This document shows positions 779 to 934 of a stretch of DNA of 5,684 bases, in pieces. This DNA comes from a virus (lineage: Duplodnaviria > Heunggongvirae > Uroviricota > Caudoviricetes). Under the pieces are notes generated by a model. The model had not been told where the DNA came from. It saw only the letters and a list, made by a program, of their open reading frames with translations, and made no database searches. The stretch is taken from the IMG/VR virus record IMGVR_UViG_2698536552_000009; one strand, 5' to 3'. Numbering within the stretch: position 1 is the first letter of the stretch; the number at the start of each line of letters is the position of its first letter. Both the position numbers and the translations under genes were made by a program.

Positions 779-795
779 TAAATTCTCCTTTGATT

Positions 796-839
796 TCAAA
801 GGCTTAGTGTATTTTAATCATTTTTAACCAAGCCTTTGA
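796..839 (-). promoter_or_regulatory. Perfect 10-bp inverted repeat (TCAAAGGCTT at 796-805 / AAGCCTTTGA at 830-839) forming a hairpin on the minus-strand transcript immediately 5' of the RBS of the 778 ORF; alternative pairing can occlude the SD
   Basis: Direct reading. The 3' arm of the hairpin (CCUUUG) can alternatively pair with the SD-containing segment CAAAGG (787-792) through a 4-nt loop, giving a mutually exclusive SD-sequestering structure. Confidence 0.3.
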
Positions 840-934
840 TATATATGTATTTTCTCTGTTAAGCGTGAGCTACGTGAAAAATAATTTTTGGTGTGGGTAT
901 TAACTTTGCTTTATTCACGTAGAACACCGTTAAA

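Follow-up and report, generated by a model that had tools for sequence, protein, structure and literature searches.

A 156-nucleotide (nt) spacer (positions 779 to 934) separates the tape-measure (TMP) gene from the tube-initiator gene on the minus strand of a 5,684-nt stretch of DNA, IMG/VR virus record IMGVR_UViG_2698536552_000009, which we refer to as the window. The window does not represent a phage genome but belongs to a family of integrative islands of ~10 to 14 kb in Escherichia coli. We tentatively propose that the spacer is a composite leader, inserted into a junction where the TMP stop and the tube-initiator start once abutted, and that it acts as a fixed leader with an open Shine-Dalgarno (SD) sequence and no switch. 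The leader would consist of two modules, each built on an inverted repeat (IR). The first, IR1 (~75 nt), would be a portable cassette whose invariant arms are bound by a sequence-specific protein. The second, IR2, would be a duplicate of the SD, ATG, and first codons of the tube-initiator gene joined to an inverted copy of the SD segment. Once transcribed, the 5′ arm of IR2 would act as a decoy SD and capture the inverted copy in the 3′ arm as a 13-bp hairpin. The true SD and the AUG would then be left single stranded, and the tube initiator would be translated from its own strong site, uncoupled from the TMP.

Comparison with related loci showed that the spacer is an insertion. The genes that flank the Felixounavirus junction (FelixO1 ORF67/ORF68; Bas63 gp17/gp18) are homologous to those of the island. 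The TMP stop directly adjoins or overlaps the next start (GAATAATG) in FelixO1 and in ~30 further Felixounavirus loci, where the SD for the tube-initiator gene lies inside the last TMP codons; the island, by contrast, carries the 156-nt insert with its own SD. Island locus L200 has no spacer, and its flanks are 97 to 99% identical to those of L165, which carries an insert of ~165 nt. Because the phage genes abut and L200 lacks the spacer, we conclude that the 156 nt were inserted. The insert in the window is bounded by a 9-bp direct repeat, AATGATTTA, which is a duplicated gene start. Copy 1 (931 to 939, minus strand, as are all leader features given below) runs across the TMP stop and preserves a remnant of the start of the next gene (ATG ATT TAA), and copy 2 (771 to 779) contains the real start codon (ATG 778 to 776). 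In the independent L165 lineage, the insert is bounded by an 8-bp repeat, ACAATGTT, within a longer imperfect duplicate of the junction. Duplicated gene-start copies thus flank the insert in two lineages. We considered and rejected a miniature inverted-repeat transposable element or Correia-like element, since the insert lacks inverted repeats at its ends, the repeats that flank it derive from the gene start, and among the fetched loci copies lay only in these leaders, with at most six places per E. coli genome. Four loci (L161, L165, L210, and L209) also have a 17-codon hydrophobic open reading frame (ORF) (MLELLIFIATHGNLLIFI) between the TMP and the IR1 cassette, which is absent from the window. 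This ORF begins at the ancestral start position, and its two DNA versions have four sense-codon differences, all synonymous, plus a difference in the stop codon; it is probably a real micro-gene.

The original prediction, made from the letters of the window alone, described two inverted repeats in the spacer, and we found both where it had placed them. IR1 is a 9-bp perfect repeat (5′ arm CTACGTGAA, 914 to 922; 3′ arm TTCACGTAG, 870 to 878) around a 35-nt loop (879 to 913). The loop is the variable part of the cassette and ends in TATTT, which together with T878 forms a TAnnnT hexamer. In the window, IR1 can be extended to 16 bp with two internal loops (934 to 858, −15.9 kcal/mol), an extension that is lost in relatives with a different left junction. 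Next come the cassette tail CTCACGCTTAACAGAG (854 to 869), which in other copies leads directly into the SD, and an AT-rich spacer, AAAATACATATAT (841 to 853), with a nucleotide diversity (π) of ~0.10. IR2 pairs over 13 bp including one G·U (839 to 827 with 808 to 796, 18-nt loop, −16.7 kcal/mol). Its 5′ arm UCAAAGGCUUGGU (827 to 839; 10-bp core UCAAAGGCUU, 839 to 830) is the duplicated decoy copy of the SD segment, and its loop UAAAAAUGAUUAAAAUAC (809 to 826) contains a gene-start relic (AUGAUU...). Within the 3′ arm ACUAAGCCUUUGA (796 to 808; 10-bp core AAGCCUUUGA, 805 to 796), ACUAA closes the duplicated codons, and GCCUUUGA is the SD segment copied in inverse orientation (the anti-SD). An 8-nt direct repeat, ATCAAAGG, has its first copy at 840 to 833 and its second at 794 to 787; the true SD, AAGGAG (785 to 790), overlaps the second copy, the two together spanning 785 to 794.

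These repeats are more than chance would be expected to supply. When the 156 nt were shuffled 3,000 times with dinucleotide content preserved, 1.4% of the shuffles contained a perfect inverted repeat of 10 bp or longer, and 0.1% contained such a repeat together with a second of at least 9 bp. RNA structure prediction, which had been suggested as a check, folded the 176-nt sense (minus-strand) RNA as two hairpins with an energy of −33.0 kcal/mol, versus −21.3 ± 3.2 kcal/mol for shuffles (z = −3.64). The antisense strand gave a z value of −2.24. We also agree with the earlier view that neither hairpin is followed by a U-tract and that neither is a simple terminator. A scan of window positions 500 to 1300 found no intrinsic terminator and no sigma-70 consensus site, the loops are 18 and 35 nt long, and no U-run follows the stems, so an intrinsic (Rho-independent) terminator was rejected as the identity of either repeat. 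A search of Rfam 15 returned no family (best scores of 18 to 19 bits versus thresholds of 45 to 76; E values of 1.4 to 4.8). The consensus for integration host factor, WATCAANNNNTTR, has a single match in the whole window (0.48 expected), at 829 to 841 on the minus strand, where it lies on the IR2 5′ arm near the AT-rich tract; the match is present in all relatives inspected.

The sequence of IR2 accounts for its resemblance to the initiation region. Alignment of 842 to 798 with 796 to 758 gave the common blocks ATCAAAGG, AATGATT, and TACACTAA, which represent the SD, start codon, and first codons; after the duplicated blocks stands GCCTTTGA, the inverse of the SD segment. As read from this alignment, IR2 is a tandem duplication of the SD-ATG-codon region of the tube-initiator gene plus an inverted copy. 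The 5′ arm resembles an SD, and the loop holds AUGAUU, because IR2 arose by duplication of the initiation region. Precise removal of IR2 would restore the sequence ATATCAAAGGAG... at the junction. Islands of the Citrobacter/Salmonella type have IR1 without IR2, and in these the cassette leads directly to an SD 23 to 32 nt before the ATG. IR2 is likewise absent from more divergent islands and from all phages, and the gene there is still expressed from a plain leader. A mini-ORF in the IR2 loop (MIKIH*) was rejected as a functional element, as its relic ATG is lost in L012, L140, and L057.

The original prediction gave the 3′ arm of IR2 two possible partners, the 5′ arm and the SD, and held that this arrangement could toggle access to the SD. 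The first half of this claim stands: both structures can fold, and both are kept in at least 98% of alignment cells across the 27 distinct relatives over which pairing conservation was computed. The SD-masking pairing CCUUUG-AAAU-CAAAGG joins CCUUUG (803 to 798) to CAAAGG (792 to 787) at −6.5 kcal/mol and was paired in 99.4% of these cells. Set against the −16.7 kcal/mol of the IR2 hairpin, however, this leaves the open state ahead by ~10 kcal/mol. In the full-length RNA ensemble, the SD bases were 70 to 93% unpaired, and in predicted folds the masking hairpin appeared only in RNA whose 5′ arm had been cut away. The toggle did not hold up, given the size of this energy gap, an SD that is open by default, and our finding no trigger that removes or occupies the 5′ arm; a regulated IR2 switch is only weakly supported and needs such a trigger. 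The SD segment is indeed a near-copy of the 5′ arm, as had been noted, but duplication is a simpler origin for this likeness than the design of a riboregulator. IR2 may nevertheless matter for translation or for the stability of the mRNA.

IR1 is not confined to this junction; it recurs as a cassette elsewhere, which the original prediction had missed. The hairpin and the CTCACGCTTAA that follows it make up a unit of ~75 nt. In many relatives, a strong intrinsic terminator is followed immediately by a second IR1 cassette and, close behind it, the TMP SD. In the window, that terminator (3179 to 3144) is kept and the upstream IR1 copy is deleted, with only its tail (AACAC-TTAAAGAGG) left. A third copy has diverged but keeps the same arms, here around a 64-nt loop; it occurs in L156, from avian pathogenic E. 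coli (APEC) O18, at 17662 to 17741 on the plus strand, just after the terminator of a small serine recombinase (invertase) gene; no obvious gene follows it. Each island has one to three IR1 copies, always co-oriented with transcription, and the cassette upstream of the TMP and tube-initiator genes is present or absent from island to island. The copies lie right after a stop codon or terminator and 23 to 32 nt before a start codon; in the window this distance is 92 nt because IR2 intervenes. An nhmmer search among the fetched loci found IR1 copies in these leaders only, and no E. coli genome had more than six places.

The arms of the cassette, 8 to 9 nt long, are its fixed part. CTACGTGA and ACGTA are invariant in 26 distinct IR1 cassettes, and CTACGTGA is likewise unchanged in the islands of Salmonella and Citrobacter and in the third copy, that of L156. 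The only frequent arm variant is a C/T change opposite G. The loop ranges from 35 to 64 nt. Its left half comes in three or more versions and its right half in several, in free combination, and we found no extended pairing or covariation between these reassorting halves. In Citrobacter amalonaticus (the loop type of L209), the loop is wholly replaced and the arms are unchanged; in this species and in Salmonella, the cassette tail is replaced by CGCATTACTAAGAGG. Diversity in the IR1 loop (π of 0.27 to 0.29) is close to the 0.24 to 0.26 at synonymous sites of the adjacent gene and well above the 0.08 to 0.10 in the 3′ arm. Because the arms are invariant and the loop is free to change, we infer that the arms are the recognized part. 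On this pattern of sequence conservation, IR1 most likely provides paired sites for a sequence-specific protein that acts on the two tail genes, via DNA or RNA. The IR1 stem was predicted in all 26 cassette variants with a probability of 0.88 to 1.0 despite their differing loops, so a role for the RNA structure is also possible.

Two other uses of IR1 were considered and rejected. A Shigella rearrangement that breaks in the IR1 loop raised the prospect of a site-specific recombination site, but the breakpoint bears an insertion sequence with a 3-bp duplication. In this locus (L016, Shigella flexneri; 4290 to 4330 and 9330 to 9360), the insertion sequence, which we take to be of the IS629 type, interrupts the loop of IR1. 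Next to it lies an inverted segment, and the SD carries a mutation (AAAGAG); in Shigella, the island is in decay. The cassettes are also not the borders at which TMP alleles are swapped, as the similarity breakpoints lie inside the TMP gene, at ~1036 to 1050 and ~2750.

From IR2 to the ATG, π was 0.01 to 0.10 (0.03 to 0.04 in the IR2 loop), versus ~0.25 at adjacent synonymous sites, and this despite differing N-terminal alleles of the gene. This low diversity suggests either constraint or a young module.

Several results weigh against the composite, SD-open leader. None of the 22 pairs had changed on both sides, and the covariation check suggested with the original prediction lent the helices no support. 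In this test, shuffles equaled the observed values. The stem sequences were highly similar among relatives, and the variable IR2 pairs had only one-sided or pair-breaking changes. With no covariation for either helix, RNA pairing in vivo stays a prediction. The low diversity of IR2, its loop included, could come from a young module spread by recombination and not from selection. Each element is also dispensable somewhere: the upstream IR1 copy is absent in the window and in APEC O18 (NZ_CP006830, 4,107,800 to 4,110,900), whose genes are intact, and IR2 is dispensable in the Citrobacter/Salmonella-type islands. There is no known binding protein, transcription start, or processing site for the leader. 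Finally, the island in the window is itself decaying, with a downstream gene that is frameshifted and truncated, and the leader function is probably no longer used here.

Four other explanations have to be set beside this one. The IR2 layout could be a translational riboregulator that moves between the SD-open hairpin and the SD-masked pairing on a signal. Candidates for that signal are loss of the 5′ arm through cleavage or a different transcription start, binding of a trans-acting RNA or protein to the decoy arm, and loading of ribosomes onto the decoy SD. The order of decoy SD, anti-SD, and SD is kept in the 27 relatives, the entire IR2 module is strongly conserved, and in RNA without the 5′ arm the minimum-free-energy structure masks the CAAAGG of the SD. 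Against this stand the energetic advantage of the open state and a 5′ arm that is transcribed first, together with the lack of covariation. We also found no trigger and no promoter-like site that would start transcription within the 5′ arm. Duplication accounts fully for the layout, and sister lineages do without the module. We consider this regulated switch improbable. The neutral view, in which the repeats are scars of illegitimate recombination and template-switch duplication that have no present function, strikes us as equally hard to credit. It fits the start-region fragments duplicated at 939 to 931, 821 to 809, and 779 to 771, the inverted SD copy, the presence/absence polymorphism of the cassette, and the decay of the window's island. 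It does not explain why the IR1 arms stay unchanged in Escherichia, Salmonella, and Citrobacter even as the loop between them drifts neutrally, why the IR2-to-ATG segment is 3- to 20-fold less diverse than neighboring synonymous sites, or why the spacer is kept in 465 genomes.

Alternatively, IR1 could be an internal promoter-operator cassette, similar to the terminator/promoter cassettes of T4-type phages discussed below, in which the TAnnnT hexamer at the edge of the 3′ arm is a −10-like element, the arms are operator half-sites, and transcription of the tube-initiator gene (elsewhere, of the TMP gene) restarts after a stop or terminator. Bases T1, A2, and T6 of the hexamer are kept beside the 3′ arm in every loop version (TATTTT, TAGAAT, TAGTTT, TAATTT, TAGATT, TAACTT, and TATATT), two IR1 copies lie directly after strong terminators, and the implied leader of 23 to 32 nt is of typical length. 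TGAACA-N18-TAGAAT was flagged in L006, and CTGATA-N16-TATATT in L209 scores 9/12 for sigma-70. However, the window variant scores 6/12, a score matched by 48% of loop shuffles; only two variants reach 9/12, and most are no better than shuffles. The scanner had no match in window 500 to 1300, the −35 region is the least conserved part, and TAnnnT arises easily in AT-rich loops. We regard a promoter here as doubtful, though worth keeping in view. A similar measure of doubt, or slightly more, attaches to the idea that both hairpins work only at the RNA level, as processing or stability elements in a polycistronic transcript of the TMP and tube-initiator genes. IR1 would then be a 3′ barrier for the TMP segment or an entry point for RNase III or RNase E, and IR2 would be a protective 5′ structure of the processed mRNA. 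In its favor, folding is stronger for the sense than for the antisense strand, all 26 variants have the IR1 stem at the high predicted probability given above, and the frequent C-to-U variants opposite G remain paired in the sense RNA only. On the other side, the arms show no covariation though the loops have fully turned over, which is more typical of sequence-specific recognition, and copies placed after strong terminators would rarely be reached by read-through. Stems of 9 to 13 bp are also short for RNase III; compared with the roughly two helical turns of double-stranded RNA for this enzyme, IR2 has 13 bp and IR1 has 9 to 16 bp.

The composite leader that we favor resembles several known systems in part. 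The promoter-early stem-loops (PeSLs) of T4-type phages are mobile regulatory cassettes (Arbiol et al. 2010, PMC2839356; Comeau et al. 2014, PMC4122927). Like them, IR1 is a short, repeated intergenic stem-loop cassette that lies at gene boundaries, co-oriented with transcription and adjacent to terminators, that is present or absent between close relatives (with flanks 97 to 99% identical), and that recombines internally. A PeSL joins a strong sigma-70 promoter to a stem-loop that is itself a terminator, whereas IR1 lacks a U-tract and its promoter match is weak at best. It also has only one to three copies per element, and the borders of the TMP mosaic lie inside the gene and not at the cassettes. 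IR2 shares with SD-sequestering leaders the series of an SD-like segment, its complement, and the SD, in which the complement pairs with either. Leaders of this kind that carry an anti-anti-SD arm include translational attenuation leaders, RNA thermometers, and the hairpin of the early T4 lysozyme transcript. In known SD switches, the two states are near in energy or are selected by a ribosome stall, by temperature, or by an alternative start site, whereas the open state of IR2 is far ahead and no selecting event is evident. The T4 lysozyme hairpin differs further in that the polarity is reversed, the full-length RNA being the open form at IR2. Since the spacer has no terminator function, no convincing promoter, and unbalanced IR2 states, it departs from both PeSLs and SD-sequestering leaders in defining features.

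Integron attC sites and repetitive extragenic palindromic (REP) elements are palindromes with conserved stems and variable loops that are recognized by proteins. IR1 is like these in its short invariant inverted arms, its variable center (35 to 64 nt), and its copies flanking a gene. It differs in that its arms bear no relation in sequence to the consensus of attC sites or REP elements, it is not dispersed through the genome, and the island has no tyrosine integrase or REP-associated tyrosine transposase gene, its recombinases being of the serine type. A nut-type antitermination site (boxA plus boxB) was rejected, as CGCUUAACA is replaced by unrelated sequence in Salmonella and Citrobacter and the cassettes lie downstream of terminators, whereas a nut site, a boxA next to a small boxB hairpin, precedes the terminators that it overrides; CGCUUAACA is also ~3 nt shorter than boxA. 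A crossover site for a serine invertase of the hix/gix type is 26 bp long, with two 12-bp half-sites around a 2-bp core, and occurs as an inverted pair. By inspection this geometry is absent from the leader, where the spacers are 18 and 35 to 64 bp, and this candidate was rejected as well.

The likeness of the window to Felixounavirus DNA is limited to 319 to 754, in the gene after the TMP (~92% identical), and to the end of the TMP gene (920 to 963). Chromosomes of E. coli hold copies that are ~94% identical to the window within small islands, for example at L017 (15800 to 29700) and L156 (8200 to 18156). These islands encode a large serine recombinase, the Dit-like gene, the TMP, and several orphan genes, as well as a replication-initiator-like helix-turn-helix protein, a Dam methylase or HNH nuclease, and a small serine recombinase. 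Their chromosomal sites differ, being tonB-yciI in one strain and beside dinB in APEC O18. The 156-nt spacer occurs in 465 of 5,426 complete E. coli genomes, always on the chromosome and never annotated. The synteny of TMP, Dit-like gene, and serine recombinase is also found in Salmonella, Citrobacter, and Escherichia marmotae, and the hosts of the island family are Escherichia, Shigella, Salmonella, and Citrobacter. The spacer itself had only short chance matches and no homology to any phage record. Two viral contigs, L011 and L013, share a 21- to 25-mer with it inside an unrelated coding region, which we dismissed as a coincidence, and the hits of a metagenome 16-mer scan were mostly chance matches that were removed by BLAST.

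The only Felixounavirus homologues carried by the islands are the tape-measure and tube-initiator genes; we sought other FelixO1 tail genes in the relatives and found none in any. The islands look like satellites or defense elements. PADLOC defense models run on the island proteins gave no matches, and a literature search returned nothing relevant on satellites or islands with a TMP and a serine recombinase or with Felixounavirus helpers. As a long shot, the IR1 arms could be recognition sites by which an infecting Felixounavirus, or an island regulator that responds to one, turns on the island TMP and tube-initiator genes. That would make the family, which occurs in ~9% of complete E. coli genomes, a satellite-like or antiphage element not described before. 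With its own serine integrase and replication-initiator-like gene, it would provide variant proteins for tail length and tube initiation that hijack or poison tail assembly by the helper. We looked in the structural module of FelixO1 for a cassette-like motif, as would suit a helper-type promoter, and found none.

The TMP gene (935 to 3106, minus strand; stop TGA 937 to 935) is an ORF with an N-masked segment at 2822 to 3059. Its product is 31 to 38% identical to Ounavirinae TMPs by tblastn, and its homologue in L017 matches the Pfam family TMP_3. The last TMP codons (..SSSYPEEE) and the tube-initiator core have 86 to 97% DNA identity to Felixounavirus. Among islands, the body of the TMP gene (window ~1050 to 2750) is hypervariable, with no DNA similarity and ~41% amino acid identity, and the 5′ end and the last ~100 to 270 nt are conserved. 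Given these conserved ends and the hypervariable body, the central tape-measure region behaves as a swappable segment. A strong intrinsic terminator upstream of the TMP leader (3144 to 3179, minus strand; a 15-bp stem and then a T-run) sits ~35 nt upstream of the TMP start codon, and there is no recognizable promoter between the two (3107 to 3143). Expression of the TMP must rely on read-through or on the cassette that is missing in the window. Four N runs of 238 to 362 nt (2822 to 3059, 3356 to 3605, 3785 to 4049, and 5012 to 5373) mask parts of the 5′ region of the TMP gene and of the upstream genes, and ORF calls there are unreliable.

The tube-initiator gene (34 to 778, minus strand) is broken in the window. 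Its homologue matches the Pfam family Dit_like, and the relatives of its product begin MIY(T/S)NQ.... In Bas63, a close relative of FelixO1, the protein encoded after the TMP (gp18) is a hexameric tube initiator (PMC12609058), and we assigned the function here because of that protein. The frame from ATG 778 (778 to 776) ends at 626 after 50 codons, and the rest of the gene stays open in another frame from 648 to 34. A 74-nt segment that is present in every relative and in every Felixounavirus (FelixO1 CAGGGCAAACC...GTTGGC) is absent at the 630/631 junction, and its loss shifted the frame; this is either a private pseudogenizing deletion or an assembly error. Positions 1 to 92 of the window are a multicopy E. 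coli repeat with a periodicity of roughly 23 nt (GATGCCAAA type) that chromosomes and plasmids carry at as many as 50 sites per genome, mostly unannotated. This repeat replaces the last ~8 tube-initiator codons (..KKYSV|CKMASES.. instead of ..KKYSVNPNKKY) and is probably the end of a mobile element.

The spacer is an example of how a translationally coupled phage gene pair can be uncoupled, by insertion of a portable leader and duplication of the ribosome site, and its riboswitch-like layout is a by-product of that duplication. It also marks widespread, unannotated small integrative islands, and the island family is a more novel object than the leader. The pair of proteins that these islands carry sets tail length and starts tube polymerization in Felixounavirus-type phages. 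If the IR1 arms are regulatory, they would offer a handle on when and by whom these tail genes are switched on, a question that bears on FelixO1-like phages of relevance to therapy.

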